Below are positions 1-47,281 of a stretch of 64,000 bases of DNA, piece by piece. Position numbers and translations under genes: made by a program. The first letter of the stretch is position 1; every line of letters begins with the position of its first letter. The notes beneath the pieces are model-generated. The model worked only from the letters and a program-made list of their open reading frames with translations. It searched no databases and was not told where the DNA came from. Source of the DNA: Candidatus Poribacteria bacterium (GTDB taxonomy: Bacteria > Poribacteria > WGA-4E > WGA-3G); NCBI GenBank assembly GCA_965220065.1, contig OZ244804.1, positions 4,416,915 to 4,480,914 on the forward strand. Reading direction: 5' to 3'.

Positions 1-1289
1 ACTGTCGCCAACATATCGTGCGGATTGACATAGTAAATCTCATGAGGTGTGCCGAGTTCCGCTCGGACACGGGTGATCGCAAAGGAGAGTAGGAAATAGA
101 CACCAAAGAAGATGCCCGCAACCCATAAGGACATCCCTGCGATAGAGGAAAAGACACCGAGCGCGACAAGTGAACCGAGAATCCCTAAGAAAGCGGCACG
201 ATACGGCATCGGTTCGTCCGAATCATCGAGACGCGATTTGAATCCAAGCACCTTTTTCATGACCTCAGTCAGATGCCGCCGTGTGACCCAGACAGCAAGT
301 AAAAAGAGCGCAATCCACGCCCCGTATGCTTGTTCGTTGAGGGCAGGGAAATAGCGCGTGCCGAGTGCCGCCCCAATGACAAATTCTGCTAAGCGAACAA
401 CAAAGAAAAACCAGCACGAAAACGAGAGATCCAACGGCAGGAAAAACGCCAATCCTACTGCGAATGGATAAACGGAGATACGGGTACCACGAATAACATT
501 CCATGGACGGTCGGTGAAGATGTCTCGGAAAACGGCTGTCCGTTTAATATAAGGGATCTCTGGGAATTGTGGGAAGAGGTAGTGAACCCCGTTAATCACA
601 CCGATAGCGACGGCGATACTGAATCCGATCCACATCATCCGATTTTTGAGGAGACTGATGCCGCCATCCTCCGAGAGCCGAAGGGGGAGTTGGATAATCG
701 GATACGCCAACTTTTCCTGTTCTGCCCACCGCTTTCGGACGAGCGTGTTGATGCAGAGCATCATGAACATCATAATCAGGAAGAAGAGTCCCCAAAACAG
801 TAACGGCTTTGTCCAGACTGTAAAGTTGTGGTTTGTGTAGAAGGTGGATTCCCCTTCATAAAACCCCTGTAAACTTTGCGCGTCAGAAACCGTAAGCCAC
901 GCGGGTAGATACCGAAAAAAGAGGGTCTGCCACTCGTTCTCTTCAGTCGCGAATCGGAACGGATGCGCGATACTGCCGAACATATTTTGCATCGTGTCGT
1001 GCCCCGCAAACGTGCAGGAGATCGCGACCATAATGTAGATCGCGAGCAGTTCCCCTTGCTGGAGCATCTGTCGCGGTGCGATGCGTTTCAATGCAAGGTT
1101 GGCGACGACACAGACGAACATGATGAAAACAGGTTGGATAAAGAGTGGAAGGCACGAACCGTCAAGGGAGTAATACTTCACCTCAACAAGTGTCATCCAG
1201 TAGACATTGACTGGAATGAGTAGGACACCTAAAAGAAGCGAGCGCCCTGTAACGCGTGACGATGAGATTGAGGTTTCACGATTCTTCAT
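1..1289 (-). CDS. Polytopic integral membrane protein of unknown function. It is partial: the C-terminus runs off the window start.
   Basis: Translating the minus strand from the ATG at 1289 by hand gives an open frame all the way to position 1 (MKNRETSISSSRVTGRSLLLGVLLIPVNVYW...), with many hydrophobic helices. It is absent from the ORF track only because there is no stop inside the window. Confidence 0.6.
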   Translation of the reverse strand, partial: MKNRETSISSSRVTGRSLLLGVLLIPVNVYWMTLVEVKYYSLDGSCLPLFIQPVFIMFVCVVANLALKRIAPRQMLQQGELLAIYIMVAISCTFAGHDTMQNMFGSIAHPFRFATEENEWQTLFFRYLPAWLTVSDAQSLQGFYEGESTFYTNHNFTVWTKPLLFWGLFFLIMMFMMLCINTLVRKRWAEQEKLAYPIIQLPLRLSEDGGISLLKNRMMWIGFSIAVAIGVINGVHYLFPQFPEIPYIKRTAVFRDIFTDRPWNVIRGTRISVYPFAVGLAFFLPLDLSFSCWFFFVVRLAEFVIGAALGTRYFPALNEQAYGAWIALFLLAVWVTRRHLTEVMKKVLGFKSRLDDSDEPMPYRAAFLGILGSLVALGVFSSIAGMSLWVAGIFFGVYFLLSFAITRVRAELGTPHEIYYVNPHDMLAT

Positions 1290-1296
1290 AGTGAAT

Positions 1297-1530
1297 GTAG
1301 GTTGGGTTGAGTCGTAAAAGACTAAGAGTCCTATAATTTGAACCAAGAATGCTGATTGTCAACCCCCTATTCTTGAAGATAGGCATAGCGAAATCCAACA
1401 AATCAAATGCTATGGGGCTAAGAATATGTTGGGTTTCACTTGGGTCTTGGGCATATCAGGTTTCTATCTGTCGGTTGCCAGTCTTCTGCCTTCTCCTGTT
1501 TTGAGTTTGTTCTCGTTCAACCCAACCTAC
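1297..1530. repeat. MITE-like dispersed element, copy 1, bounded by 18-bp terminal inverted repeats GTAGGTTGGGTTGA(ACGA).
   Basis: The left end is gtaggttgggttga at 1297-1310 and the right end is tcgttcaacccaacctac at 1513-1530. The internal motif gttgggtttcac is shared with copies at 6883-6970 and 14537-14805. Confidence 0.7.
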
Positions 1531-1591
1531 AAGAATCTGTTTCTTTTATCAAACTCACGTTAATTTAGGAGTAGCGGGCGCGGAGAAATCG

Positions 1592-3457
1592 TTAACGGTA
1601 GGCTTTAACGATTTCTGAGATGACACTGGCTCTGTTTTTCCAATTCATACGAGCAGGCGGAATCAGATAGATGCCATCGATTGCGCATTCATCTTGATTA
1701 CGGATCTCCTGAACCAATTCCAAGCACAGTCTCATACCAAGTTCATGTCCAGTGGTGTCTCCAAGATCCCGGAATTTGTCAACAATAAACTGCGGGATGT
1801 AAAGCCCCAAATTATCGCGTAGATAGGATGCGCTTCGGAAACTCGTGAGTGGTAGGATACCGTAGAGGATCTTTATATCGAGATGTTCCGTTGCTTGCTG
1901 GGCGCGTAAAATATCCTCATAGGTCCAGACGGGTTGTGTGTATGCAAACTTCGCGCCATGTGCCACTTTATTTGCAAGGTGCTTGACGTGTGGCTGTAGC
2001 TTCTCTGCAATCGTGAAGCCACCGCCATAATAGAAACTGCACGGCTCCCCGATCGACGAGCCATCGGCGAGTTCGCCTTGGTTCAGTCGGGCAATGAGCC
2101 TCATCAATTGAACCGCACCGCGAACATCCGGGACGAGACTGGCGGTCTCATAAGGTCCGGCTTTCGGATGGTCCCCGGATAGAGCAACAATGCCTCGGAT
2201 TCCCAATGCCTCCGCTTCCAGAAGATGAGATTGCATACTGATGAGATTACGGGATCGGGTCGTCCAATGGATGAGCGTCGGAATCTGGGTCGCCTGCTGG
2301 AGTCGATATGCTGTGGCAATAGCCCCAATGTTCACTGCGGCACCAGAATTGTCGGTTACGTCAAATAAGTCTACACCGGTTGCCGCGAGGTTTTTCGCTT
2401 CTTTCAGCATTGCTCGCAATTGCGGAAAAGTATTGGCGCGCATTTCTACACTTACAATGTGTTCGCGCGTTTCAAATACTTGTTGGACAGGATTATCGGT
2501 TGGTGCTTTAGACGTTGACGTAATTTTTGGGAGGACGAAAATGCGTTGCTCCCGTTGAACAGGTTCGCGTCCTACGAGAGCCTGTCGGATTTTTGCCGTA
2601 TAGGCAGGGGTCGTACCGCAACAGCCGCCGATCATGTTCGCGCCGAGTTCAACTAATTTTCCAACATAGTCGCTGAAAACCTCTGCCTCGACTGTGTAAG
2701 AGACGGCAATTTCACCCTGTTCTACTCTCGGATTTCCAGCGTTCGGTTGTACGGCAATAGGGACTTTGATAACGGGGGCAAGCAACTCCATCGCCTCAAC
2801 GAGATCATGCGGTCCTCTGCAATTGATGCCGACTGCGTGCGCGCCGAGTTGTTCTAACGTTTGTGCAAAAACGCGCACATCTAATCCTGCGCCTACAGTT
2901 CCTCCTGAAACCCCGCTGATTTCAACGACGACAGGGACATCATAGGTGAGTGCTTGCTTTGTAGCGATTTCTGCTTGTTTGGGGGAGACAAAAGTTTCGA
3001 GTACGAGAAGATCAACGCCTTCATCGACGAGCGCGTCCATCTGCTCCTTGAAAAGCCGTCGGAGTGCCTTCGTGGATGGAATCGGCGTATCTAAAGTTTG
3101 AAACGGAATTTGACCAACGGAGCCAGCAACATAGCATGTCTCTTGTGCCGCCGCTCGTGCCAGTGACACGCCTGTTCTGTTAATCTCTTCAACCTGTTCA
3201 GCCAAGCCGTGGACTGCTAATGCTTCTCTGTTTGCTTGATAGGTATTCGTCTGAATGACATCGGCACCCGCATCGATATAGGCGCGATGAACCGCTACAA
3301 CCCTCTCAGCATGCTCTGTAGAAATATTGCAGGCATCGATGCACTGTAAATGTGATGGGATCCGTTTGCGGAGTTCGGTTCCGATAGCACCGTCACACAC
3401 CAGAATCTGGCGGGCGAGGGCTTCCATAAAGTTATCTGGTCTTGAGTTAATAGCCAT
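1592..3457 (-). CDS. yitJ: Bifunctional homocysteine S-methyltransferase / 5,10-methylenetetrahydrofolate reductase (YitJ-like fusion).
   Basis: The N-terminal half has the Hcy-binding (Pfam S-methyl_trans) motifs: GAIGTEL, GADVIQTNTY, and a CCGTTP zinc ligand. The C-terminal half is an MTHFR (MetF) TIM-barrel. At 621 aa it matches the known Bacillus-type fusion. Confidence 0.8.
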   Translation of the reverse strand: MAINSRPDNFMEALARQILVCDGAIGTELRKRIPSHLQCIDACNISTEHAERVVAVHRAYIDAGADVIQTNTYQANREALAVHGLAEQVEEINRTGVSLARAAAQETCYVAGSVGQIPFQTLDTPIPSTKALRRLFKEQMDALVDEGVDLLVLETFVSPKQAEIATKQALTYDVPVVVEISGVSGGTVGAGLDVRVFAQTLEQLGAHAVGINCRGPHDLVEAMELLAPVIKVPIAVQPNAGNPRVEQGEIAVSYTVEAEVFSDYVGKLVELGANMIGGCCGTTPAYTAKIRQALVGREPVQREQRIFVLPKITSTSKAPTDNPVQQVFETREHIVSVEMRANTFPQLRAMLKEAKNLAATGVDLFDVTDNSGAAVNIGAIATAYRLQQATQIPTLIHWTTRSRNLISMQSHLLEAEALGIRGIVALSGDHPKAGPYETASLVPDVRGAVQLMRLIARLNQGELADGSSIGEPCSFYYGGGFTIAEKLQPHVKHLANKVAHGAKFAYTQPVWTYEDILRAQQATEHLDIKILYGILPLTSFRSASYLRDNLGLYIPQFIVDKFRDLGDTTGHELGMRLCLELVQEIRNQDECAIDGIYLIPPARMNWKNRASVISEIVKAYR

Positions 3458-3461
3458 CTAA

Positions 3462-3492
3462 GAGAAAAGCGCGCTTAGAAAGCGCGCCTTCC
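3462..3492 (-). terminator. Rho-independent terminator-like hairpin (GCGCGCTT-TCT-AAGCGCGC followed by TTTTCTCTT) between the stop of the 3512..5146 gene and the yitJ-like start.
   Basis: There is a perfect 8-bp GC-rich stem with a 3-nt loop, followed by a U-run on the minus strand. It sits 11 nt upstream of the yitJ-like ATG. Confidence 0.5.
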
Positions 3493-3511
3493 TATGTTTA
3501 TGAGGGAATTT

Positions 3512-5146
3512 CTATTTAATTATTTCTCCCGCACTTTCGGTTGGGATATAATAATAGCCAAAGATAATACACATCTCATCTTCAGACGTGAGTCCAAATA
3601 TAAGGGGTTCGTCCGTGTCGTAGTTGTTATGGGTACACTCGAACTTGAGTGTGTCGGCTGCATCTAAGCGAAGAACCGGATCGAAAGGGGTAATCGGGGC
3701 ATCATCATAAGAGATACTCCGATGTAGCAGATCGCCTGTTGAACCCTGAAAAATCTCGAACAGTTCCCCGTGCCGATGCATGTGAGATGTCAGCAGAAAG
3801 ACGTTCAAAGCTGTTCCTGCATCGTGTCCACGACGCTCCAACTCATCTTCAACGTACCACGTCATTTTAGCGACACGTGTTGTTCCGGGTGGGACGTTAA
3901 TTGACCGATTAGAAACGAAGATTTCAACGGCTTCGTATTGGACTTCCGCCTCCGGAATCGTGTAGATATTAACGTAAGTTTCACCAAGCAGCGTTTCGTC
4001 GCCGAGCAGATTGATGTAGTGGGAATTCAGATCGTAAATGGTATCACCGGGGAGCCGTAACCCTACACCCTCCGGGAACGCAAAGAGGGTGTCATCTGTT
4101 TGTGTTCCGACGACGAAAAGTCTGTCAACCCCGAAATTCCCAAGTACCAGCGGATCTTCAGTATCAAGTTCACGGAACTCATCTTCCGAATTAACACCGA
4201 TTCCGGGTGTAATGCCTCTCTCTGGCACACCTTGTGCCAAACCTTCTTCCGTGAATCGATATAAGATGAAGTGATGGCTACCCGCAGGATAGAAAATCTC
4301 TACTCTATTGATAAAGATATCTCCCTCTACGGGATCCCCATTTTCATCTCTGATTTGGGTGGCGTAGTAAATTTCCCGTTCGGTGCCGGGTTCAATTTTG
4401 AACGGCGGCAAATGGAGTTGATAGCCTTCCCCAGGCGCGGGAGGCGCAGGGGGTTCAAAGACTTCATCAGGATCGCGTAAAACACCAAGATCTCCAATAC
4501 CTGCTATTTTACCGGTCTGTGGTGCCCCTGCCTCGATCCATGTCCGAACCGCATCTATCTTACCATTGTGGAGTACGCCGCCACCGAACGGCATCCGCTG
4601 ACCCTGTTCCGCCACTGTCGGTCCCATCAATTTCGTCAAAAGAAAACTGTTCTCTGGGTTCCCTGGGTCAACGAGTTTCATACCCGCCGCTGCCGCCGCG
4701 GGATTCTGTGGCACAACTCCCACCAACTCTTCGTAGGAGAGACCATAGGTGAGATTCAAACCGAGGGCGTTTGCAGGCGCGGCATGGCAAGCACTGTTCG
4801 CACAGCTCTTATCAAAGAGGGCCTCCTGAATATCATGATACGTGGAGTTTTCATCCGGGGCAGTTTGTCCAAAACTGCTGCTCACGCGAACGAGGTCCAA
4901 GACGTTGACAATCCCGTCGCGGTTCACATCAGGATCCTGTTCTGCATTGCGATCCCTGGGTTGTCCGAAAGAACCAGCGACAAGCACCAAATCTTGGATG
5001 TTCACGACACCATCTTTATTAACGTCTTCCAGCAAGGTAGGGAGATTGCTGTGTCCGAACACCAGGAGCGATACGCCACCTACCAGTACAAGAACGAGTG
5101 CGGAATAAACTATTTTTTTTAACATAATTAGTAATTTAACCTCCAA
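3512..5146 (-). CDS. Secreted protein with two dockerin-like repeats and a planctomycete-type cytochrome-c-like (PSCyt-like) domain.
   Basis: The N-terminus is a hydrophobic signal/anchor. The dockerin-like repeats are DVNKDGVVNIQDLVLVAGSFGQ and DVNRDGIVNVLDLVRVSSSFGQ. The segment SCANSACHAA...NPENSFLLTKLMG...RMPFGG...WIEAGAP resembles the PSCyt family but has a CX4CH rather than a CXXCH motif. The C-terminal ~330 aa are unassigned. Confidence 0.55.
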   Translation of the reverse strand: MEVKLLIMLKKIVYSALVLVLVGGVSLLVFGHSNLPTLLEDVNKDGVVNIQDLVLVAGSFGQPRDRNAEQDPDVNRDGIVNVLDLVRVSSSFGQTAPDENSTYHDIQEALFDKSCANSACHAAPANALGLNLTYGLSYEELVGVVPQNPAAAAAGMKLVDPGNPENSFLLTKLMGPTVAEQGQRMPFGGGVLHNGKIDAVRTWIEAGAPQTGKIAGIGDLGVLRDPDEVFEPPAPPAPGEGYQLHLPPFKIEPGTEREIYYATQIRDENGDPVEGDIFINRVEIFYPAGSHHFILYRFTEEGLAQGVPERGITPGIGVNSEDEFRELDTEDPLVLGNFGVDRLFVVGTQTDDTLFAFPEGVGLRLPGDTIYDLNSHYINLLGDETLLGETYVNIYTIPEAEVQYEAVEIFVSNRSINVPPGTTRVAKMTWYVEDELERRGHDAGTALNVFLLTSHMHRHGELFEIFQGSTGDLLHRSISYDDAPITPFDPVLRLDAADTLKFECTHNNYDTDEPLIFGLTSEDEMCIIFGYYYIPTESAGEIIK

Positions 5147-5156
5147 ACATTGGATA

Positions 5157-5882
5157 TTAACGCAGTTGATTCTGCGTCATATTTTTAAAAAGTTCAGTTT
5201 CTGATATAAAACGGTATTTTAGAAGTGTCCATGCGGCAGAAAATCCATCTGACCAGAATCGGAGTTTCTTGCCCTCCTTCTTCGTGCGCGGGAAATAGGA
5301 AACCGGTACCTCGTAGATACGATAACCCGCACGCAAAATCTTTGCTGTGACCTCCGGACAGAATTCAAATCCTTCACACGTTAAATCTAAACGTGTGATG
5401 AGTTCTGTGGAGAAGGCTTTGTAGCCTGTTGATTCATCGGTAATTCGGCATCCGTAAAGGAGATTTGTGTAGATAGCGAGAATACGATTCGCTATGAAAT
5501 TATGAAGACTGGCGTTCCCTCGCCCATTCAGAAACCTTGATCCGTAGACGACGTGAATGTTCTCCTTTTCCAGTGGTCCCACAAGTTCAGGTAGATCTGC
5601 CGGAGTCAATTCCATGTCTGCATCTTGAATAACGACTACTTCTCCCTTCGCGTATGGAAGCCCGCTCCGAATTGCGAAACCCTTGCCTCTGTTCTCTTGG
5701 CAATGCACGACGGTCAGTTCATAAGTCGCACGCAATTCCTCAAGCACCTTGTAAGTTCCGTCGGTGGAACCGTCGTTGACAACAATCAATTGTTTCTCAA
5801 GTGGCAGGGTACATAGTGCCTCCAGCACCTGTCCGATTGTCTGCTCTTCGTTGAACGCAGGAACGATTACGGATATTAACAT
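5157..5882 (-). CDS. Family 2 glycosyltransferase (DPM1-like / polyprenyl-phosphate sugar synthase-like).
   Basis: It has the GT2 motifs ISVIVPAFNEE, VVNDGSTDGT and VIQDADMEL (DxD). Confidence 0.8.
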   Translation of the reverse strand: MLISVIVPAFNEEQTIGQVLEALCTLPLEKQLIVVNDGSTDGTYKVLEELRATYELTVVHCQENRGKGFAIRSGLPYAKGEVVVIQDADMELTPADLPELVGPLEKENIHVVYGSRFLNGRGNASLHNFIANRILAIYTNLLYGCRITDESTGYKAFSTELITRLDLTCEGFEFCPEVTAKILRAGYRIYEVPVSYFPRTKKEGKKLRFWSDGFSAAWTLLKYRFISETELFKNMTQNQLR

Positions 5883-5909
5883 CGTTCATCATGCCTCCGT
5901 TCAAGTGTA

Positions 5910-6701
5910 TCAGAGTAATGATTTTACCATGCCGCCGTCTACCTGAATCGTAGTGCCGGTGATGTAACTGGCGCGTTCCGATGCCAGAAAAACGACTAAG
6001 GTTGCAAACTCGTCTGGGTCGCCGATTCTACCGAGCGGAATATCTGCAGTCATATTTGCGAGTGCCTCATCAAACGTGATGCCACCCTCTTCTGCACGGA
6101 CGGTCGCGAGTTGTCGGATACGGTCGGTGAAGATAATACCGGGACAGACGTTGTTAACGAGAATTTTATCTGGTGCTAATTCTGTCGCGAGGGTCTTCGC
6201 GAATCCAATCACGCCTGTCCGTGCCATATTGGATAACATAAGTCCATCGACAGGTTGTTTGACAGAGACAGAAGTAAGATTGATAATCCGTCCACCACCA
6301 CGCACCCGCATCGTCGGGACAACAGCGCGACAGAGGTTTATCGTGCTCATCAGGTTCAATTGGACGGCGTCTTGATAGTCCTGTGCCTCCAAGTCATCGA
6401 ACCGTCCGGCTCTGGGTCCACCGGCATTGTTAACCAATATATCAATACCACCGAAGTGCTCTATCGCTGTGCTAATGAGATTTTCAACCTGATCTGGTTG
6501 GCTGACGTCGGTCGGTACCGCTAAAACTTCGGTGTCGGTCTGATTGCGAATGTCATCTGCTGTTGCTTCCAAAGCCTCTTTGTCTCTTGCGCAGATAGTG
6601 ACCTTCGCGCCTTCGTGTGCTAACCCAAGAGCGATCGCGCGCCCAAGTCCTTTGCTTGAGGCACCTACAACTGCAATTTTATCCGTGAGTCCAAGGTTCA
6701 T
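5910..6701 (-). CDS. SDR-family NAD(P)-dependent oxidoreductase (FabG-like).
   Basis: It has the glycine-rich KIAVVGASSKGLGRAIA motif, the NNAG motif and a YxxxK-type catalytic region. Length is 263 aa. Confidence 0.8.
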   Translation of the reverse strand: MNLGLTDKIAVVGASSKGLGRAIALGLAHEGAKVTICARDKEALEATADDIRNQTDTEVLAVPTDVSQPDQVENLISTAIEHFGGIDILVNNAGGPRAGRFDDLEAQDYQDAVQLNLMSTINLCRAVVPTMRVRGGGRIINLTSVSVKQPVDGLMLSNMARTGVIGFAKTLATELAPDKILVNNVCPGIIFTDRIRQLATVRAEEGGITFDEALANMTADIPLGRIGDPDEFATLVVFLASERASYITGTTIQVDGGMVKSLL

Positions 6702-6882
6702 TATGTTATGTTAATATGGGCTTACAAACTACGCCCTACATCCTTTCAAAAATAGAATCAATGTTACGCGATTAAGTATAACACTATGGTGGTGTAATGT
6801 CAAAGGTAATTTCTGTTGGCTGAAAACAGTAGTCGCAGTTTCATGAAAATTAAGGATTTAATTGGAGAATGTTGTGATCCTG

Positions 6883-6970
6883 TAGGTTGGGTTGAACGAG
6901 ACAGAAAACGGACGTTCCCTGTATTGGTCTTTTGCTGGATAATTTAGCGTGAAACCCAACTTATATTAGG
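6883..6970. repeat. Truncated copy of the MITE-like element: one terminal inverted repeat plus the internal gtgaaacccaac motif.
   Basis: gtaggttgggttgaacga occupies 6883-6899, and gtgaaacccaac follows about 45 nt later in the orientation of the right half of copy 1. Confidence 0.6.
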
Positions 6971-7110
6971 ACTTACTGACAATTACATAGATCTCTACTC
7001 TTTAACAAACAGCCGTTCGTAGTAGTGCGATTCATCGACATCGTGCCAAAAAGCACCAAATATTTTCAGACTTCACTATATGTGATATGTGCCGAAAGCG
7101 TTTCCAGACG

Positions 7111-9684
7111 CTACTTCTTTATCAACATTTTGCGTGTCATTGAGAAGTCTCCTACCGATAATGTAGAGAAATAAACGCCACTCGCCATGGGTTCACCGTG
7201 TTGATTTCTGCCATCCCAATACGCTGCGCGGCTTTTGCTGTGATACGTTCCTGCAGGTTGATGTCCCAACGCCAAGGTCCGCACCAGTGTTCCATCTATA
7301 GAGCGGATGTGCAACGTCACTTCCGCAGGCTTAGATAACTGATAGGGTATCCACGTCTCAGGGTTAAAAGGGTTCGGATAGTTTGCTAAGAGATGGGTTT
7401 CTGTTGGAATAGTTAAGGTTGCAAGGAGTTGTTCAAGCACAACAATCCCTCTTTTTGCAACCTCAACATTGGGGTGTGAAGAACCAACGTGGAGGTCATA
7501 GTCTTTCGCTTGTCTTATCCACTTCTGTAAGTCTGCGGTTGTAAACGCAGGCATTTCTTGGATATGTAACGCCGGTGCTGCCCGTACATCACTTAACAAA
7601 CTGGCAACTAAGAGGAGATCGGCAATATTGACAATCCCATCTCCGTTAACATCCGGATTTGGATGAACCCTGCCAACGATCGTTTTGCCGAAATTGGAAG
7701 CAACCAATACGAGGTCTGCTATGTTGACCGCTCCATCTCTGTTGACATCGGCGTTGTTTCCAGATACTAAGGCGTTCACTGCTCTGAGTGTGTAGTCCTG
7801 CCGTGTAATATTTCCGTGGACATCAATCACTTGGAGGACGACATTGTTGATTTGCTGTGCCGTTAAGGTCGGCGTGCTGAATTTAAGGAGACTGCTTGGC
7901 GTGTGTAAGTCCTTACAACTGTGTAACTTGACACCGGACGCTGGGTCCAACACGGTCGTCGGCACCAGTAACTGCGCTTGGTGGATACCGTCTACATCAC
8001 TGACGGAAAATTGGAGTGTAAAATTTCTCGCGTTTCGGGAGTACCTTGAAGGCGTGAGCATCTGAATCGTTGTCGGTTCATTGAAGGCGGTTTGACCGGT
8101 GTTAAAAAAGCGATTGGCGTTCAGCCAACTGGCGGCACACTTAGACAGTTGATTTGGTGCTACTCCGTATGACATGATGTATGTCGGATCTCGAAAGTCG
8201 TGCTCTAAACCGAAAGCGTGTCCGAGTTCGTGCGCTGTTACAACGACGCCATACGCCCCCTCGAAACACACACCCGAGGCAGGGATCACCGCGCGGCCCC
8301 CTCGAGCCCTGACCGAGGGTTCATTTTCAAACCAATTGCCGCCACCAACCCCGCATTTGTCTGTTGCACCAATGAACTCACTACTGATGTCTGCGACAAT
8401 GAGATAGACGTGTTTTTCCGTGTCAAACAGAGACGCGACTTCATCGTAGACCTTGTTTGCAGTATCCGTATGGTAATATTGGTCTCTGAACTGCCCCTCA
8501 ACTCGGTATGCAAGCATCTGACCATTTGCATCGGTTTCATACGTGAAGGTTTTTCGACCGAATCCATTAATTTGCATCTGGTCTGCATAAAAACGTTGAA
8601 CGCGCCTTATGAGTGTATCCACCTTCGTCCAGATGCTCGGTTGCATGTTCCGATCGCGCGGGAGGAAATAGATAATCCGCACCATATCCGGAGTGATAGA
8701 ACGATAGGGTGTGACATCCCAGAGTCGGAGTGTGCTGTCCGTACCACCGCTGATCAGCGAACTTCCGTCTGGAGAAAAGGCGGTACCCCTGACCCAATCT
8801 GTGTGTCCCATGAGCGTGCCGATATTCTCGCCGATGTTAACCCTCCATAGATTGACAGATGTATAGCCTGTGGTGGCAAGCGTGCTGCTATCGGGTGAGA
8901 AACTCATATTGGAGATTGTGCCGTTGGTGGTAAGCGTGCCATGGGGTATCCAATTCGGTGCTTTCCATAATTTCACTTTCCCTTCGTATCCCGCACCCGC
9001 AAGGATTTGGGCATCCGGAGAGAACTGAACGGTATAGACGGCCTCCGAATCAGCATGAAGTTGCGTAACAGCCTGTTGGCTTTGAACATCCCAGACGGTA
9101 ACCTGACCACTGTTATCTCCCGTGGCGAGTAGCCTGCCATCGTTGGAAAACGCAACTGCCCAGACCCAGTCGATATGTCTGAGCGTAACGATCTCGTTGT
9201 AGGTGCGTGCGTTCCAGAGCTTCGCATGTCTACCGCCAGTCGCTATCATGCTGCCGTTTGGAGAGAAGGTAACCGCTTTGACTTGTGAACGAGCGCGGTC
9301 AGTAATATGCTCATGGATTACGATATGGCGTTTGTGGTTGACATTCCACAATTTGAGGACATAATCGTCACCACCGCTGGCGAGAAACCTGCCGTCTGGG
9401 GAAAAAGCGATGGAATTGACAGTATCATCGTGGTGACCTAATGTTGCCACGGTCCCGTTCCGCAGATTCCACAACTTTATTACCCCATTATCGCCAGCAC
9501 TGGCAATCAGGAAAGGATTCACCGGGGAATATGCAACCGTTAGGACGCTACTGCCGTGTTTAAGTAAGGTGTGTTCTGTTTGAGCGACGGCGGTGAGTGA
9601 CAGCGTCAGCAAGAGGGGTATTATGAGAGATAGACGCTTGAATTGCATATTTCTAACGATTGGTTTCTGGGGCCTCTCCGTCAC
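7111..9684 (-). CDS. Secreted multidomain protein with WD40 beta-propeller, metzincin-type zinc metalloprotease, dockerin-like repeats and a T9SS C-terminal sorting domain.
   Basis: There is a signal peptide, and the real start is probably the internal ATG at 9648 (MQFKRLSLIIPLLLTLSLTAVA). About 7 WD40 repeats are present (WNxxxG, LWD, WDV). The HELGHAFGLEHD motif is HExxHxxGxxH. The two dockerin repeats are DVNRDGAVNIADLVLVASNFG and DVNGDGIVNIADLLLVASLL. The C-terminus NYPNPFNPETWIPYQL...SGVYFSTL...KMLIKK matches the TIGR04183-type Por secretion sorting domain. Confidence 0.7.
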   Translation of the reverse strand: MTERPQKPIVRNMQFKRLSLIIPLLLTLSLTAVAQTEHTLLKHGSSVLTVAYSPVNPFLIASAGDNGVIKLWNLRNGTVATLGHHDDTVNSIAFSPDGRFLASGGDDYVLKLWNVNHKRHIVIHEHITDRARSQVKAVTFSPNGSMIATGGRHAKLWNARTYNEIVTLRHIDWVWAVAFSNDGRLLATGDNSGQVTVWDVQSQQAVTQLHADSEAVYTVQFSPDAQILAGAGYEGKVKLWKAPNWIPHGTLTTNGTISNMSFSPDSSTLATTGYTSVNLWRVNIGENIGTLMGHTDWVRGTAFSPDGSSLISGGTDSTLRLWDVTPYRSITPDMVRIIYFLPRDRNMQPSIWTKVDTLIRRVQRFYADQMQINGFGRKTFTYETDANGQMLAYRVEGQFRDQYYHTDTANKVYDEVASLFDTEKHVYLIVADISSEFIGATDKCGVGGGNWFENEPSVRARGGRAVIPASGVCFEGAYGVVVTAHELGHAFGLEHDFRDPTYIMSYGVAPNQLSKCAASWLNANRFFNTGQTAFNEPTTIQMLTPSRYSRNARNFTLQFSVSDVDGIHQAQLLVPTTVLDPASGVKLHSCKDLHTPSSLLKFSTPTLTAQQINNVVLQVIDVHGNITRQDYTLRAVNALVSGNNADVNRDGAVNIADLVLVASNFGKTIVGRVHPNPDVNGDGIVNIADLLLVASLLSDVRAAPALHIQEMPAFTTADLQKWIRQAKDYDLHVGSSHPNVEVAKRGIVVLEQLLATLTIPTETHLLANYPNPFNPETWIPYQLSKPAEVTLHIRSIDGTLVRTLALGHQPAGTYHSKSRAAYWDGRNQHGEPMASGVYFSTLSVGDFSMTRKMLIKK

Positions 9685-9830
9685 ATTACGCGGGGGTTTT
9701 CGTTAAAGTCGCACTCCTTCTTGATGTTGAAAAGGGTTAGAGTTAACCGGAAACCGTTGTGTAATGAAGTGGAGCGACACCCAGGAGCCGATAAATTAAA
9801 AAAGATAACATGCTGCCCTTACAAACGAGA

Positions 9831-10868
9831 TTATTGGGTTTGTGCCATGGGCACATTCCATTTTTCGGCGCATTCGCGAAGCTGCTGGTAGATGGAGTCG
9901 GGGATATCAATCCCGTTTGCGAGGCGGCGTGCGCGAGTATTCGCTTCAAAATCCCCGGGGACTAACACCGCGTCGAAGCCGGGCGCGGGGGGTATCGTCT
10001 TGATTGCGTCTAAAAATGCCCGAACCCCTTTTTGGTACTCAGCAAGCGATGTGAACGCGTTGACATCAATCACTTGCATGTAGAGACCGCCTATCTGTCC
10101 AGTCTCGATGTTAAATGTTCCTGCCAATCCACCGAGTAGACAGACGAAGAGGGAGAGCGCATAGCCTTTATGCCTTCCAAAAGCAAGAAGATGTCCACCA
10201 TCGCGATACTCGGCAGTTTTGACAGTGGGATTTCCGTCTTTGTCAACAACACATCCTTCCGGCAAATCTCTATTTTCGCTGTCGGCAACGTAGGTTTTAC
10301 CGTTTGCGATCATACTGGTTGCGAAGTCGATGAGAAATGGAGTATCATCGCCTGTAGGGACACCGATGGCGATCGGATTCGTCCCGAGTGCGCCAACCGC
10401 ACCACCGAAGGGGAGGATGCGTCCACCGCCTTTTGAACCGCCACCGACGGTGATAATTCCAATATATCCGGATTCCGCGGCTTCTTGTGCGTATTCACCG
10501 ACCCTGCCGATATGTCCCGTCCGAGTAAGTGTCGCGAAGCAGGTGCGCGCAGTTTTCGCTTTTTCGATCGCACGCCGGACGGTGTATCGGGCAGTATAGT
10601 GCCCAAAACCGTTTCCACCATCAATATGGAGCGTGTTGTTGGTTTCTCGTAGCACATCCGGTTCGGCATCCGGACGGATACCGCCGCCCTCAATTCCGTC
10701 GAGGTAGGAGGGAATCCGAAGCACACCGTGCGAATCGTGTCCAGCGAGATTCGCTTTTATCAAAATCTCGGCAACGTTATCCGCGATGTGCTGCGGTGTG
10801 CCTGCCGCCACAAATATGGCGTTTGTAAATGCCTGAAGATGTGCGGCTTCAAATATGTGCCTCTTCAC
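9831..10868 (-). CDS. Ldh_2 family (malate/L-lactate dehydrogenase family 2) NAD(P)H-dependent oxidoreductase, paralog 1.
   Basis: The GHDSHGV motif and overall similarity to ComC/AllD/DpkA-type enzymes support the call. A GGAGG Shine-Dalgarno lies 8 nt upstream. Confidence 0.75.
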   Translation of the reverse strand: MKRHIFEAAHLQAFTNAIFVAAGTPQHIADNVAEILIKANLAGHDSHGVLRIPSYLDGIEGGGIRPDAEPDVLRETNNTLHIDGGNGFGHYTARYTVRRAIEKAKTARTCFATLTRTGHIGRVGEYAQEAAESGYIGIITVGGGSKGGGRILPFGGAVGALGTNPIAIGVPTGDDTPFLIDFATSMIANGKTYVADSENRDLPEGCVVDKDGNPTVKTAEYRDGGHLLAFGRHKGYALSLFVCLLGGLAGTFNIETGQIGGLYMQVIDVNAFTSLAEYQKGVRAFLDAIKTIPPAPGFDAVLVPGDFEANTRARRLANGIDIPDSIYQQLRECAEKWNVPMAQTQ

Positions 10869-10904
10869 GATGCGTTCCCTCCTATCTTATTCTCGTAAGC
10901 GCGG

Positions 10905-11984
10905 TTATGAAAGCGGACTATAGTGTGCCTTGTCGTCTTCCTCGACAGTGTCCTCACCGATGGAAATGCCGAGTTTGTCTGCGCATTCTTGAAGTTGATT
11001 GTAGATGGTGTCGGGGATCTCAATCCCATCCACTAACCGTTGTGTGCGGAATTGGTGTTCAAAATCACCGGGGACAAGGACTTCGTCGAAGCCGGGGGCT
11101 GGCGGTGTAGATTTAATGCCGTCTAAGAAGGCGCGCACACCTTTCTGGTATTCATCAACCGGTGTGAAGGCGTTGACATCGATGGCTTGCATGAAAATGC
11201 CGTTCATGGTGCCCTGCTCTACATCATAAGTTCCTGCCAAGCCACCAAGGAGGCATGTGAGCATAGCGAGTGCGTAGCCTTTATGTTTCCCAAACGCGAG
11301 AAGCGAACCGCCATCGTAGAAATCAGCGGGTTTGACGCTCGGCATTCCGTTTTTATCAAGAATACAACCTTCCGGTAAGTCGATGCCTTTGCTCCGTGCG
11401 ACCTGTATCTTACCTTCGGCAACCATACTCGTGGCATAGTCAACGATAAACGGACTGTCATCGCCGGTCGGCACACCGATGGCGATCGGGTTCGTCCCGA
11501 AAGCACCTTCCGCGCCACCAAAGGGGACAGTGGGTCCTCTGCCTCTACCGCCGCCACCGGTGGTAACAATTGAGATACATCCGGCTCTCGCCGCCGCTTC
11601 TGCATACTCACCCAAACGTCCAATATGTCCAGTGTTAATGATACTGATAGAACAAGAGATAGCGGTTTTTGCCTTTTCTATCGCTTTACTCATAGACCAG
11701 CGTGAGACGTAGTGTCCGAAGCCGCGTTGTCCATCGACACGTAAGGTATTCGCTGTCTCTGCGAGAACTTTGGGTTCCGCGGTCGGATCGAGTTGTTTGG
11801 TATCAATGCCGCGTAAATACGCAGGAACGCGCAGCACGCCGTGTGAGTCGTGACCCGCAAGGTTGGCATTGACGAGGATTTCGGAGACATCCTCTGCGAT
11901 GTGCCGCGATCCGCCAGCGGCGACAAAAATATTACGCGCAATTGCGTGGAGATGTGGTGCCTGAAGTAGATGCGTTTTTTCCAT
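10905..11984 (-). CDS. Ldh_2 family oxidoreductase, paralog 2, in tandem with paralog 1.
   Basis: It has the same GHDSHGV core and is collinear with the 9831..10868 product. I chose the internal start at 11984 (MEKTHLL...) because it aligns with the paralog's N-terminus. The ORF-track start at 12017 is the alternative. Confidence 0.7.
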   Translation of the reverse strand: MEKTHLLQAPHLHAIARNIFVAAGGSRHIAEDVSEILVNANLAGHDSHGVLRVPAYLRGIDTKQLDPTAEPKVLAETANTLRVDGQRGFGHYVSRWSMSKAIEKAKTAISCSISIINTGHIGRLGEYAEAAARAGCISIVTTGGGGRGRGPTVPFGGAEGAFGTNPIAIGVPTGDDSPFIVDYATSMVAEGKIQVARSKGIDLPEGCILDKNGMPSVKPADFYDGGSLLAFGKHKGYALAMLTCLLGGLAGTYDVEQGTMNGIFMQAIDVNAFTPVDEYQKGVRAFLDGIKSTPPAPGFDEVLVPGDFEHQFRTQRLVDGIEIPDTIYNQLQECADKLGISIGEDTVEEDDKAHYSPLS

Positions 11985-12145
11985 TTTTTTAACTATTGCT
12001 CCTGGACTGCCCTCCATTTCATTATGGGCAGGTTTCTGGTCAATTCGCGACTGTGTTTGCTAAAGTTGAAAGTCGTAGAAGAAATATGCACCCTATCTTA
12101 TCGGATTCGCTTTTTTTGTCAATTGAATTATGCGTCCAATCCGTA

Positions 12146-12166
12146 GCCTGCAACATCGGCGCAGGG
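12146..12166. repeat. REP-like palindromic element GCCTGCAACATCGGCGCAGG, followed by a T-run.
   Basis: It is a perfect 6-bp stem GCCTGC/GCAGGC with a 9-nt loop. The same 21-mer recurs at 61047 and 61133. Confidence 0.6.
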
Positions 12167-12245
12167 TTTTTGCTTGGGTGTTTCCTCAAGAGATGAAGAA
12201 CGCCCGTCAAAGTTCAAACGTCCGTTGTTCCTCCGCAAGGTAAAA

Positions 12246-13214
12246 TTAAAAAGCCATTTCAACGAGGGTACCCAATCCTTTGGCTTCTGCTTCTACAAGC
12301 ACCGCGGCTCCCGCGACCGCATCTTGCACCGCCACGCCGACCGATTTAAAGAATGTGATTTCGTCGTTTGATTGGCGTCCCTGCTTGTCGCCGTTGATGA
12401 TTTCTCCGATTTCGGCATCAATTTCAACGTTCGGGATAATCAGGTCTCCTGCTTCCTCTAAGCAGGCTTCCCGCGAATCGACCACAATTCGATCAGCCTT
12501 TCTTAGTGTCGTCGTGTCAACTTCTCGTTTCTCTGGGACAAACGTGCCAACAGCTGTGATGTGTGTACCGGGACGCAGGGCATTTCCGTCGAAAAGTGGG
12601 GTTGCCGATGTCGTCGCACAAATGACAATGTCAGCGTCCTCTACGGCCTGTTGAGGGTTCGGGACGAGATGAACTGCTGGGGCATCTGTCCACGCTGAAA
12701 TTTCAGTGGCGAGTTGTTGTGCTGAGGCTTTTGTGCGACTGATGAGGTTGACGCGCTTGATGTCTCTGACCGCCATCACCGCCTGCAGTTGTGCTCTCGC
12801 CTGTACGCCTGCTCCGAATAAACCAACCGTTTTCGCGTCCTTTCGGGCAAGAAGATCCGCCGCCACACCACCACCGGCTCCCGTTCGGATAGCGGTGAGA
12901 CTACTGCCGTCCATGATTGCTTTTGGGAGTCCTGTCGCTGGGTCGAGCACCAAAACTGTCGCGGTGATGCGGGGCAAGTCGAGGTTTGGATTATCGTCAT
13001 AAACCGAGACGACTTTGATACCGAACTCACTGCGCTCAGGCAGATGCGCAGGCATTAGAAGCGTGACCCCTTTGTCAGTGGAGATATGTTGCCGTGGCGG
13101 TGCGGTCACTTTGCCTGCTGAAAGTTGACCGTAGGCGTGCCGCATCGCATCAATGGCTTTGGGCATCGGCAAGGCTGCTCGGACATCGGCGGCAGAAAGG
13201 ATTCTAATACGCAT
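12246..13214 (-). CDS. Ornithine cyclodeaminase / mu-crystallin family protein (possible ketimine or pyrroline-2-carboxylate reductase, or OCD).
   Basis: It is an OCD/mu-crystallin-like Rossmann protein of about 320 aa. The start at 13214 (MRIRIL...) has a GGAG Shine-Dalgarno 8 nt upstream. It overlaps the upstream enolase-family gene by 8 nt, suggesting translational coupling. Confidence 0.7.
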   Translation of the reverse strand: MRIRILSAADVRAALPMPKAIDAMRHAYGQLSAGKVTAPPRQHISTDKGVTLLMPAHLPERSEFGIKVVSVYDDNPNLDLPRITATVLVLDPATGLPKAIMDGSSLTAIRTGAGGGVAADLLARKDAKTVGLFGAGVQARAQLQAVMAVRDIKRVNLISRTKASAQQLATEISAWTDAPAVHLVPNPQQAVEDADIVICATTSATPLFDGNALRPGTHITAVGTFVPEKREVDTTTLRKADRIVVDSREACLEEAGDLIIPNVEIDAEIGEIINGDKQGRQSNDEITFFKSVGVAVQDAVAGAAVLVEAEAKGLGTLVEMAF

Positions 13215-13218
13215 TCGA

Positions 13219-14322
13219 TTACTCCACATGAACGACCGCTTCACCTAACACATCCATATCAGGAGTGATTCCCAAGCCCGGTTGCGTTGAGGCTGCCATC
13301 CTGCCGTTAGTGCGTTGCGGCGCGCCTGCCGCTGTGCTGACAGTGACGTAACTGTTGAAATCTGTCGCCGTGAAGAGGAACGCTGTCGGTGTACTGTGCG
13401 CGAGATGGGCAATGGCGGCGGTTGTAATATCGCCACCCCAGCTATCTTCGATGGTCATCGCAATTCCGAGTTCGACGCATAAATCTCTCGCAAGTTTCGC
13501 TTTGGTGAGTCCACCGAATTTGCTAATCTTAATGTTGACGACATCCATCGCCCGATCGGCATGACCGCGTAACAACGTGTGAATGCTGTCTATCGTCTCG
13601 TCAAGCACAAAGGGGTGACCCGTACGCTGACGGATGGCGAGGCATTCTTCGTAGGAGAGACAGGGTTGTTCAATGTAGACATCCACATCGTTCACGCCTT
13701 GCACGACACGGGCGGCTTCGTGCATCAACCAACCCGTATTCGCATCCGCAATGAGTACATCTCCGGGTTGCATCAGTTCGGCGACTGCTCGGATGCGTTC
13801 AATATCGGTGTTCGGATCGCTCCCCACTTTTAACTGGAATTTGCGGTACCCTTCCGCACGATAGGTGGCAACTTTCGCCGCCATCTCGTCGGGAGATTGT
13901 TGGGAAATCGCACGATACAGCATGAAATCTGAACCGTACCTACCGCCAAGAAGTGTACAGACCGATTGGTTAGCGACCTTACCGAGGATATCCCAACACG
14001 CCATGTCGATTGCTGATTTCACGTATGGATGTCCCTTGAGGGCAATGTCCATGCGTTGGTTGAGCGGGAGCAGTTGTGTCGGATCTTCGCCAATGAGGTG
14101 CGGACCGAGCTCGGTGATACCTGTGCGGGTGCCTGCCGCATAAGCGGGAAGATAGAACGGTCCCAGCGGACACACCTCGCCGTAGCCGGTGATGCCTTCG
14201 TCCGTTTCAATTGAGACGATGGTGCTGTCAAATACGGATACAGATTTCCCGCCCGACCAGTTGTAACTGCCTTCATAGAGTGGGAGATCGACTTGGTAGG
14301 CGTTGATATAGCGAATTTTCAT
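13219..14322 (-). CDS. Enolase-superfamily enzyme of the mandelate racemase / muconate lactonizing enzyme (MR/MLE) subgroup.
   Basis: The N-terminal capping domain is followed by a TIM-barrel region with metal-ligand acidic residues (e.g. ...VDVYIEQP..., ...LDETIDS...). Length is 367 aa. Confidence 0.7.
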
Positions 14323-14536
14323 TTTTTTAACTATGCGCCAAGCGTGAAACGACGCGGTTGGTGACTTAACGGTTGTTGCTCAGGTTTCGCAAGTGCCGTT
14401 GTTGCTTGCTCCCGGCATTTTACCTAAGCCGTTGTGAAGATAATAACATGTTTGACCAAAACCGTCAAGAAAAGATCGGTTTAATAGCAAGCACATGGTT
14501 CTCCGGCAGAGAATGTTCAAATTTGAGCATAGGAAA

Positions 14537-14805
14537 GGTAGGTTGGGTTGAACGAATAGGACCAGAGTGTTGGTAATTCAAAATAGGACCAGAGTGTTGG
14601 TAATTCAAAAAATCGCGTCGTTTCCATGCGACTTCTACTCCAGAGATACCGAGAGGAACCCAACACTTTTCGTATGAGGATTCGGGAATCTGGAGGTATA
14701 AAGTTGGGTTTCACTTCATCCTTGATGGGGTATAATGGCTATGAGGTTGATGTGCATTTGGAATGTTGGCATCGCACTTTTCAGTGTCGTTCAACCCAAC
14801 CTACA
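14537..14805. repeat. MITE-like element, copy 3 (full length, 269 bp), carrying an internal 27-bp tandem duplication.
   Basis: The terminal inverted repeats are gtaggttgggttgaacga at 14537-14554 and tcgttcaacccaacctac at 14788-14805. The internal unit aataggaccagagtgttggtaattcaa is repeated twice (14554-14580, 14581-14607). The internal gttgggtttcac is at about 14704. Confidence 0.75.
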
Positions 14806-14854
14806 GGCTAAGTCGGCACTTAATGAGTTGAGCGAAAATGAACCTAACAAATAA

Positions 14855-16321: not shown

Positions 16322-16649
16322 GCATCTTTACCTCCAAGGGAAAAAGGTGTTGATATGGAGATAAGAGCAATTCCCGTGCCGACGCAAAAAGTGCTGAATT
16401 TGCGGGTATCCGTGTGATTATCGGGGTTAAGCTGCACGAAAAGGGACAGTTGTCTGTTTAAGTTGCACAAAAAGGGGCTATTTTCGGCGTTTCTACAGGC
16501 ATGCCACTGTTATAGTGGATTGGAGTGAAGAGGTCTACAGGATGGAGAACCGATGCGGTTGGGTGAAGTTTCAATAAATATTTCGATTTAAGTGTAGAAC
16601 CCATTCAAGCATCATGCCGAAAATCACAGATAGATAAATGGGCAATCTT

Positions 16650-16679
16650 AGCCCCGTAGGGGCGGCATCTCTGTAGAAC
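16650..16679. repeat. Small dispersed repeat AGCCCCnnnGGGGCGGCATCTnTGTAnAAC (hairpin plus conserved tail).
   Basis: It is nearly identical to 47231-47257 (gccccagcggggcggcatctgtataac), which places a GCCCC/GGGGC hairpin directly at a gene boundary. Confidence 0.55.
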
Positions 16680-21829: not shown

Positions 21830-22047
21830 TGCGGTTCACTCTCTATATGTCAATTCGTATAGGTTTCAAAATTGTTCTTAATAGACTTAACGTCTTTCTT
21901 ACGACACTGTTTACGAAATAATTCTACACGATTTAAACAGGGAATGCCAATAAAAAACGTGAGGATGGAAGTGTTTTGTGCTTGGAAAATATTATTTGGA
22001 GAAGATAATCCAAGTTTGAATGAGTTGGAGTAATAGTTTTGGGAGAA

Positions 22048-22121
22048 TGGGCGATGCTGGACTTGAACCAGCGACCTCTTGCATGTCAAGCAAACGCTCT
22101 AGCCACCTGAGCTAATCGCCC
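22048..22121 (-). tRNA. tRNA-Val (anticodon GAC).
   Basis: I folded the cloverleaf manually. The acceptor is GGGCGAT/ATCGCCC, the D-arm is GCTC...GAGC, the anticodon loop is TTGACAT and the T-loop is TTCAAGT. Confidence 0.85.
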
Positions 22122-22135
22122 ATCGGAGAAAAGAA

Positions 22136-22210
22136 TGGAGGTGGCGGTCGGAATCGAACCGACGAATAAGAGTTTTGCAGACTCTGGCCTTACCACTTGG
22201 CTACGCCACC
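22136..22210 (-). tRNA. tRNA-Cys (anticodon GCA), with encoded CCA.
   Basis: The acceptor is GGTGGCG/CGCCACC, the anticodon loop is CTGCAAA, the T-arm is GTCGG-TTCGATT-CCGAC and the discriminator is U. Confidence 0.85.
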
Positions 22211-22218
22211 ATAGAAGA

Positions 22219-22293
22219 TGGAGCGGGAGACGAGATTTGAACTCGCGACCTCCACCTTGGCAAGGTGGAGCTCTACCACTGAGCTACTCCCGC
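22219..22293 (-). tRNA. tRNA-Gly (anticodon GCC), with encoded CCA.
   Basis: The acceptor is GCGGGAG/CTCCCGC, the anticodon stem-loop is CCACC-TTGCCAA-GGTGG and the T-loop is TTCAAAT. Confidence 0.85.
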
Positions 22294-24120: not shown

Positions 24121-24424
24121 GAAACGCTCCTCGAGAAATAATGTAAACGCCAGTTTGATAAAAGTGGGATGTCGGGTTTCACTACCGCTACTTAGGCGAG
24201 AAGTGTCTTGAAAAACGCTGTATTTGTTCAACGCGTCCAGTTTTTCGTGTGTATTTACCGCTCTACCCGACCTACAGATTTATTTTCAAGCTCACGTTAA
24301 TGTAAAGAAAATATTATACTACGTCTTGAAGGGAATGTCAAAAGGTAAAATTAAGAAGCAAATAAAATGAAAATATGATATAATTTTTTTCAAAATCTAT
24401 ATCTGAGTTACGAGGTGAAAAAAG

Positions 24425-25771: not shown

Positions 25772-25899
25772 TTTTTGAACGTGCGATAAATCGCACTACT
25801 ACGAGCAGTCTCGTTGTAGTAGGGAGACCATGTGCAAATCGCGTGTGGACTTGCGGGACAATGCCCGTCGATTACCACATTTTACACAGAGGAGAATGA

Positions 25900-35378: not shown

Positions 35379-35396
35379 CTAATAAGGAGTAAAAAA

Positions 35397-36691: not shown

Positions 36692-36738
36692 ATGTGTAAT
36701 GGCATCTTACAAGCGGCTGTCCGTGACGGAGGAATATC

Positions 36739-40641: not shown

Positions 40642-40716
<75 letters not shown>

Positions 40717-47257: not shown

Positions 47258-47281
47258 GTAAAACACTAAAAGGAAATCGAA

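Follow-up and report, generated by a model that had tools for sequence, protein, structure and literature searches.

A GTAG-tagged repeat family with expanded hairpin tips in Candidatus Poribacteria, probably of the REP/REPIN type

A 64,000-nucleotide (nt) stretch of DNA (the window) from Candidatus Poribacteria, a candidate phylum of sponge symbionts, was examined for a dispersed repeat that an earlier reading of the sequence alone had described as MITE-like (MITE, for miniature inverted-repeat transposable element) with 18-bp terminal inverted repeats (TIRs). The repeats probably belong to a GTAG-tagged family of the REP/REPIN type (REP, repetitive extragenic palindrome; REPIN, REP doublet forming a hairpin), whose units and dimers would be, or have been, copied by a REP-associated tyrosine transposase (RAYT) and whose hairpin loop has been expanded. 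The new feature is a unit of ~102 nt with an expanded tip, present in an uncultured phylum and carrying half-sites exactly as in cyanobacterial REPs. Because the same ends form compact REPs and flank RAYT genes, the family is grouped with REPs/REPINs and not with MITEs derived from insertion sequences (IS) of the DDE type.

The base of the hairpin consists of a 5' GTAG tag, an 8-bp stem (GTTGGGTT/AACCCAAC), tandem GA/GA, and two covarying base pairs. The compact cyanobacterial form is a 31-nt hairpin with a GAA tip (GTAG-GTTGGGTT-GAACGAAGTGA-AACCCAAC), the start of which is the 18-mer GTAGGTTGGGTTGAACGA, and ~10-20 nt beyond it there is usually an inverted partner (GTTGGGTT-TCGTTCCTC-AACCCAAC-CTAC), making a GTAG-tagged REP doublet. 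Half-sites are identical in the cyanobacterial compact REPs and the poribacterial units, and the latter have ~70 nt of copy-specific sequence in place of the GAA tip, a tract that may have arisen by insertion there. In Poribacteria, units measure 97-105 nt (mode 102). Some stand alone, and others are joined tail to tail in dimers of 229-267 bp, in the order half-site A, loop, half-site B, spacer (28 nt in copy 1 of the window and 38 nt in copy 3), inverse B, loop, inverse A. The poribacterial set (33 genome blocks and the window) holds 44 full-length units. GTAG stands ahead of GTTGGGTT, with the stem partner AACCCAAC present, in all six window units and in 30 aligned units (one with GTTG); the alignment of these 30 non-redundant units has near-invariant ends and little information in the middle.

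The 18-mer has four exact matches in the window against 0.03 expected by chance, at 1513-1530 (-), 6882-6899 (+), 14538-14555 (+), and 14787-14804 (-). The shorter GTAGGTTGGGTTGA occurs six times with at most two mismatches (0.41 expected), and GTTGGGTTTCAC lies exactly at 1428 (+), 6949 (-), and 14703 (+), with the variant GTCGGGTTTCAC at 24171 (+). A profile built from related units (nhmmer) finds exactly six units in the 64 kb, at four intergenic sites and all within the first 25 kb, with E-values of 1.6e-13 to 4.5e-5 (V, the copy-specific tract):

1297..1399, plus strand: unit 1a, 103 nt, GTAG-GTTGGGTT-GAGT...V ~72 nt...GC-GA-AATCCAAC, with one G.T stem wobble; E=2.2e-11
1400..1427: spacer of 28 nt at the tail-to-tail junction of copy 1
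1428..1530, minus strand: unit 1b, 103 nt, GTAGGTTGGGTTGAACGA-V-AGTGAAACCCAAC; E=6.8e-13
6882..6960, plus strand: single short unit, 79 nt, V ~49 nt, GTAGGTTGGGTTGAACGA...GCGTGAAACCCAAC; E=4.5e-5
14538..14664, plus strand: unit 3a, 127 nt (100 nt and a 27-bp tandem duplication), degenerate 3' half-site GAGAGGAACCCAAC; E=4.1e-7
14665..14702: spacer of 38 nt between the units of copy 3
14703..14804, minus strand: unit 3b, 102 nt, GTAGGTTGGGTTGAACGA-V-AAGTGAAACCCAAC; E=1.6e-13
24171..24275, minus strand: complete single unit, 105 nt, GTAG-GTCGGGTA-GAGCGG-V-AGTGA-AACCCGAC; E=1.8e-11

The dispersed, non-coding, intergenic family with inverted ends that the sequence-only reading reported is real, as the excess of 18-mer matches attests, and its parts are put together differently. 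What were taken for an 18-bp TIR and a separate internal motif form a single GTAG-tagged hairpin, of which the TIR is the 5' half and the internal motif the 3' half, and each supposed full-length copy is two ~102-nt units placed tail to tail (1a and 1b in copy 1; 3a and 3b in copy 3). The half-copy is the single unit at 6882-6960, and a remnant placed at 24261-24305 is the end of the complete unit at 24171-24275. The limits of copy 1 hold (1297-1530, 234 bp), those of copy 3 become 14538-14804 (267 bp), and those of the half-copy 6882-6960 (79 bp). The inverted ends, described as near-perfect, are exact in copy 3 and at the right end of copy 1; the left end of copy 1 (1297-1314, GTAGGTTGGGTTGAgtcg) agrees with the 18-mer at 14 of 18 positions. 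Copy interiors are weakly alike, with 50% mean column identity in a four-way alignment.

One genome per species was scanned with the exact 18-mer as query, so that counts and taxonomic proportions are biased lower bounds; the 18-mer was found in at least 119 stretches of public genomes, nearly all from Cyanobacteria and Candidatus Poribacteria, and is thus not confined to the window. Single matches among those listed come from Moraxella, Gallionella, Desulfobacter, Brocadia-group bacteria, and Nitrospirota. Nostoc, Calothrix, and Microcystis are among the cyanobacteria with the compact form, and its GAA tip is also seen in scattered phyla other than cyanobacteria. The two forms are sharply separated by the length from GTAG to AACCCAAC: of 71 cyanobacterial sites, 67 measure 26-32 nt, and of 18 sites in the remaining non-poribacterial groups, 16 measure 29-36 nt (the last two being one of 37-90 nt and one expanded unit in the unclassified metagenome-assembled genome (MAG) DOM43_bin32), whereas in Poribacteria the length is 97-104 nt at 22 of 34 sites, with two compact sites and nine without a partner. 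A metagenome scan for expanded units matched at least 120 stretches, of which contigs L147 and L244 (loci outside the window are cited by L number) carry poribacterial-type units; other metagenomic families are 96, 97, 100, 105, and 107 nt long. The 18-mer was not found in viral contigs, by which carriage on phages was ruled out. A literature search on REP or RAYT in Poribacteria found no paper, and one with the repeat sequence strings gave unrelated primers only.

Covariation supports the hairpin. The GA is invariant on each side after the 8-bp stem and the next two positions covary (AC/GT 34, GC/GC 26, AT/AT 9, GG/CC 3). Of 82 distinct expanded units, 91.5% can make both pairs, versus 55% (maximum 65%) with shuffled partners, a control that overstates independence because the expanded units are related sequences. 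In the unit at 24171-24275 two substitutions compensate each other, T>C on one side of the stem and A>G on the other (GTCGGGT/ACCCGAC), and the stem stays intact. Folded as single-stranded DNA (ssDNA), compact hairpins are significantly stable, at -6.8 and -7.0 kcal/mol (z=-3.5 and -4.2), and the terminal stem is retained when expanded units are folded to minimum energy. In the ssDNA folds of the dimers at 1297-1530 (-34.1 kcal/mol, z=-4.0) and 14538-14804 (-36.1 kcal/mol, z=-3.8) the outer ends pair together and the inner motifs pair together; single-stranded dimers are thus predicted to be able to form one long hairpin.

Outside Poribacteria the repeat is linked to RAYT (Y1/HUH) genes. Such genes lie between a GTAG-GTTGGGTT hairpin and a GTTGGGTT...AACCCAAC-CTAC hairpin in L120, L121, L185, and L235, the RAYT stop codon falls inside GTAG in L075, and a RAYT-type gene starts just after the repeat in L093 and L008. 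The flanked loci (L075, L120, L121, L185, L235) are cyanobacterial and metagenomic. The RAYT clade has thousands of members; those that match best come from cyanobacteria, in many of which they bear the annotation 'REP-associated tyrosine transposase' (PF01797). GTAG-tagged REPs and RAYTs have been described, including cyanobacterial families and dimers 20-100 bp apart (PMC3733652), and the arrangement here matches the described cyanobacterial GTAG families and RAYT Group 4 (PMC3733652; PMC5581495).

The poribacterial repeats resemble GTAG-tagged REPs/REPINs with RAYTs (PMC2817692; PMC3116915; PMC3733652) in their 5' GTAG, short G+C-containing stem, extragenic position, and multiple copies, in their inverted doublets tens of bases apart without target-site duplication (TSD), and in the identical hairpins that flank RAYTs outside Poribacteria. 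Within the window there are six extragenic units, including the two tail-to-tail dimers. They depart from the usual description of a REP as a small 20-40 bp palindrome with a short loop, since the poribacterial units are 97-105 nt long with a loop of ~85 nt, compared with loops of 2-27 nt in described families (PMC3733652). They also differ from known REP/RAYT systems in that neither the window nor the 33 poribacterial blocks yielded a cognate RAYT. The compact cyanobacterial form, with an 11-nt 'loop', fits the description of the cyanobacterial GTAG families (GTAG-12, -15, and -16; Di Nocera 2013), and the poribacterial units are, unlike these families, an expanded derivative.

A classical MITE, that is an internally deleted derivative of a DDE-transposase IS moved by cut-and-paste or copy-and-paste through its 18-bp TIRs, would share the length of 229-267 bp, the lack of coding sequence, the intergenic position, and the 14-18 bp inverted ends. 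MITEs are known from cyanobacteria, Nezha being one, and are alike in length class and in these other respects, although Nezha has ISNpu3 TIRs and flanking direct repeats (PMC3184786) and the poribacterial elements have RAYT-type ends and no TSD. When TSDs were sought in nine dimers (229-267 bp), eight had none, and the 2-nt AG match in the ninth, copy 3 of the window, is consistent with chance. The supposed TIR recurs as a hairpin half-site inside the element and in units that have one such end only, the same ends flank Y1 (RAYT) and not DDE genes, and the window has no transposase beside any copy and no IS that combines these TIRs with a DDE transposase. We therefore consider a MITE very improbable and do not retain that label. 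Palindrome-associated elements (PATEs) of the IS200/IS605 family are closer in being of Y1/HUH type, hairpin-dependent, and free of TSDs; in PATEs, however, two subterminal hairpins that differ from each other lie on the same strand, and the ends of the present repeats are a single GTAG hairpin in inverted copies, as in RAYT systems.

Related dimers at non-orthologous loci record past mobility. Copy 1 is homologous over its full length to dimers in L016 and L028, from another poribacterial species, and the homology spans both loops, the spacer, and seven bases outside GTAG; copy 3 is likewise homologous to a dimer in L060. As the flanking genes of these homologous dimers are non-orthologous, the dimers moved as units. 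The window is also 86-94% identical over ~16 kb to the Candidatus Poribacteria MAG chromosome OZ242349.1 (loci L019 and L083), in which a ~265-bp segment (~6848-7113) that includes the unit at 6882-6960 is missing; this segment is composite and its edges do not coincide with the unit.

Under the REP/REPIN interpretation, units and dimers would be copied, now or formerly, through ssDNA by a RAYT, which is proposed to recognise the GTAG tag and the hairpin base and whose mode of copying would leave no TSD. The hairpin base would persist through RAYT recognition or through host use under selection, while the loop drifts. Several observations weigh against this interpretation. No RAYT flanked by this repeat occurs in the window, where tblastn found no RAYT even at E=5, or in the 33 poribacterial blocks, and searches with a cyanobacterial and a poribacterial RAYT as queries, together with inspection of contigs, gave RAYT loci flanked by this repeat from cyanobacteria only; the cognate transposase that the sequence-only reading proposed to look for was in these searches seen outside Poribacteria only, and since no RAYT lies near the poribacterial units examined, RAYT dependence within the phylum is argued from homology. 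The REP on either side of the one poribacterial RAYT seen (L061:2654-3232) is another GTAG REP. In stability, expanded units do not exceed their shuffles (z=-0.6 to -2.0), no structure is contributed by the loop (mean z=0.03 versus loop-only shuffles), and a stem of 8+2 bp around a loop of ~85 nt is thermodynamically weak. The tight unit length of 97-105 nt is without explanation under simple neutral drift of the loop. Near-identical copies were few and the loops of paralogues have diverged strongly, which gives no evidence of recent activity. The selection of the genome scan on the exact 18-mer counts on the same side.

The L061 RAYT is 42% identical to the cyanobacterial clade and occupies a conserved syntenic locus in several genomes (L122-L126), in the order TPR - HD - RAYT - 166-aa gene - methyltransferase. 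Its nearest relatives outside Poribacteria are cyanobacterial RAYTs (55-60% identity), and the REPs that flank it read GTAGGGTG(C/G)GCAnnG(C/G)CCACC. This RAYT and its REPs form a second REP/RAYT link between Poribacteria and Cyanobacteria. REPs of the L061 type (GTAGGGTG(C/G)GCA...CACC) were not found in the window. A GTAG-tagged, REP-like hairpin of a different family, GTAG-GTGCGGTT-TCT-AACCGCAC, lies at 58859-58885; further copies are at L061:928 and in sequence flanking L049 and L115.

Loops of the GAAC-type units are mutually alike (z=16 above shuffles), and GAAC-type and GAG-type loops are alike in the same orientation (z=4.2 above shuffles); the loops are still homologous despite their divergence, with subfamilies visible. 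Candidate functions of the loop were set aside in turn. A structured element is ruled out by the mean z of 0.03, and a coding peptide by inspection, as unit lengths of 100-105 nt break the frame between an ATG-like start and an NPTY-like end; with unit length varying by 1-5 nt the loop has no conserved reading frame. A tRNA-like loop (72-75 nt) was also rejected, as ARAGORN and Rfam find just the four true tRNAs of the window. These are a Val(GAC)-Cys(GCA)-Gly(GCC) cluster at 22047-22293 (-) and tRNA-Pro(CGG) at 40642-40716. Rfam gave no match to the repeats, either at the gathering threshold in the window or at E<=1 on 1200-1650 and 14450-14900.

The ~70-nt loop could itself be a second tiny mobile insertion, or a RAYT self-insertion, into the hairpin tip, which would make the units nested composites; we regard this as possible but unlikely. 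It would accord with several abundant metagenomic families of 96-107 nt (L128-L246), in which the loop of an outer GTAG-GTTGGGTT...GAAACCCAAC hairpin encloses either a whole compact REP in inverted orientation (GTTGGGTTTCGTT..CTCAACCCAACCTAC) or an internal GTTGGGTTTCG. The complete inner REP is seen in the families of 96, 97, 105, and 107 nt and the inner GTTGGGTTTCG mid-loop in L108 and another metagenomic family, and in L028 one unit is nested inside another dimer. The weak but significant likeness of GAAC... and GAG... loops in the same orientation points the same way, although it could reflect descent from a single expanded ancestor. The poribacterial loops contain no recognisable inner REP, and no free copy of the loop was seen outside the hairpin, for which no search was made. 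With the nested families and L028 in view, the hairpin tip may be a recurrent point of insertion and also the origin of the poribacterial loop, a suggestion that we put forward with considerable doubt. A RAYT system that inserts into, and carries ~70 nt of cargo in, its own recognition hairpin would yield both the 102-nt units and the REP-inside-REP families, or a smaller element might parasitise the REP loop; this too is speculative and, on balance, improbable. If insertion into the tip did occur, the length constraint would stem from what the transposition complex, or a host protein that has co-opted the units, physically requires.

The repeats might instead be immobile and host-maintained, with the hairpin bases serving as binding sites or as RNA or DNA structural signals at a functionally constrained spacing of ~102 nt. 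REPs and bacterial interspersed mosaic elements (BIMEs) of E. coli have been proposed as stabilisers of transcript ends, terminators, and sites for nucleoid proteins or topoisomerase. In keeping with such a role, at least 20 Poribacteria genomes share near-invariant half-sites around loops that have diverged almost to randomness, units vary little in length, the search for a cognate RAYT in Poribacteria found none, and copy 1 ends 7 nt before the ATG (1289) of a DUF6785 gene and so must belong to its 5' region. The orthologous copies 1 and 3 are moreover 99.1% and 97.5% identical between the window and OZ242349.1, versus 81-96% for neighbouring genes. Identity between the two is mosaic, however, with blocks of 99-100% (~3600-4400 and 12800-13300) beside blocks of 72-80% (window 1200-17000 against L019 and L083), a pattern that suggests recombination between lineages. 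Since other blocks of 99-100% exist, the identity of copies 1 and 3 is suggestive of constraint without demonstrating selection on the elements, and it was set aside as proof. Orientation relative to genes is inconsistent, a unit between divergent genes is ill-suited to be a terminator, and the related dimers at non-orthologous loci show past mobility. Beyond the absence of an Rfam match, promoter and terminator scans are at chance level. The promoter-like sequence inside copy 1 (TTGACA-18 nt-AATTAT, 1333-1362, minus strand), directed at the DUF6785 gene, is a single 10/12 match, of which one is expected by chance in the region; the ATG of this gene has no obvious Shine-Dalgarno sequence. We judge a purely host-maintained family to be a minority prospect, and it would be compatible with a RAYT origin. 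The repeats are like E. coli BIMEs, for which host roles in transcript stability and protein binding have been proposed (PMC2817692), in having inverted REP pairs and length-constrained spacing; the constrained segment of BIMEs lies between complete hairpins, and that of the poribacterial units inside a hairpin.

The stem also recalls integron attC sites, as GTTGGGT fits the core GTTRRRY and ACCCAAC the inverse core RYYYAAC, a match that is visible in the sequence. Core is followed by inverse core on both strands, the reverse of the attC order, the units lie between unrelated housekeeping genes with no cassette array, and the same motif flanks RAYT genes. An attC origin was rejected on the wrong order of the core sites and has next to no probability.

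To our knowledge, REP/REPIN-RAYT studies concern almost entirely Proteobacteria and short hairpins. A REP identical base for base in Cyanobacteria and a sponge-symbiont phylum would mean cross-phylum RAYT transfer or extreme conservation, and a hairpin base can evidently survive a 70-nt loop, in a form that goes unreported by surveys filtering unusual loops. One survey left out repeats whose loops were unusual in length or composition (Di Nocera 2013; PMC3733652); with such filters, the REP content of poorly studied phyla may be under-counted. Expanded units also generate spurious open reading frames (ORFs) in annotation, and the unit length of ~102 nt and the nested REP-in-REP families offer substrates for probing RAYT recognition and insertion site. 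Should none of these wider points hold, the above would still correctly describe a repeat family of an ordinary kind, selfish or commensal.

An outer motif, TTAACGTGAGTTTGATAAA, accompanies some units:

1545..1563, minus strand: TTAACGTGAGTTTGATAAA, 15 nt outside the GTAG of unit 1b
24144..24162, plus strand: copy TAAACGCCAGTTTGATAAA with 3 mismatches, beside the unit at 24171-24275 on its argJ side
24282..24300, minus strand: copy TTAACGTGAGCTTGAAAAT, inverted relative to 24144-24162

The unit at 24171-24275 is thereby flanked on both sides by inverted copies of TTAACGTGAGTTTGATAAA. In the form TTAACGTGAGTTTGATAA(A), the motif lies 7-17 nt outside GTAG at 5 of 68 unit ends, on both sides of this unit and of the L016 dimer, and it occurs alone elsewhere. 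The right flank of copy 1, which had been read as a possible extension of the element or a preferred repeated target, is a separate motif tied to one subfamily. GTAG-15 has loops of 9-15 nt, and its dimers in A. variabilis are embedded in longer palindromes, an arrangement similar to that of the outer motif (PMC3733652); likewise some poribacterial and Nostocales copies are embedded in an outer palindrome.

Gene context at the four sites confirms that all copies are intergenic. They adjoin ordinary genes, namely those for DUF6785, a MetH-like methyltransferase/methylenetetrahydrofolate reductase (MTHFR) fusion, a short-chain dehydrogenase/reductase (SDR), a WD40 protein, an enolase-superfamily protein, DUF4159, ArgJ, and an aminotransferase. 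The unit at 24171-24275 sits between the divergent argJ and aminotransferase genes, and translation of argJ truly starts from the ATG at 24120 instead of the TTG at 24231. The 27-bp tandem duplication in copy 3 and an ORF running through it had both been noted and are borne out: the duplication covers 14555-14610 (2.1 copies, 100% matches) and is not present in the orthologous copy of the related genome, and the ORF (14517..14714, minus strand, 65 aa) reads FELPTLWSY twice.

Other repeats were observed in and around the units. A second short repeat, TCGTAGTAGTGCGATT(C/T)ATCG, occurs at 7017-7037 (+) and 25784-25804 (-) (two versus none expected), and similar GTTYGTAGTA..GCGATT sequences adjoin units in L025, L044, L070, and L082. 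A further repeat of ~150 bp (…ctgtcagaaattgcgtcttctgtaggagcgatctccaggtcgcgaccc…) lies in or beside units in L040, L079, and L082, all from Poribacteria. Elsewhere in the window, tandem paralogous gene segments with 70-76% identity occupy 9831-12017, 35037-37281, and 46896-48250 (repeat families D1-D4). An 86-bp tandem pair, 76% identical, at 61047-61218 starts with GCCTGCAACATCGGCGCAGG, of which a third copy lies at 12143-12165, and the segment 12143-12251 matches another poribacterial genome (L092).

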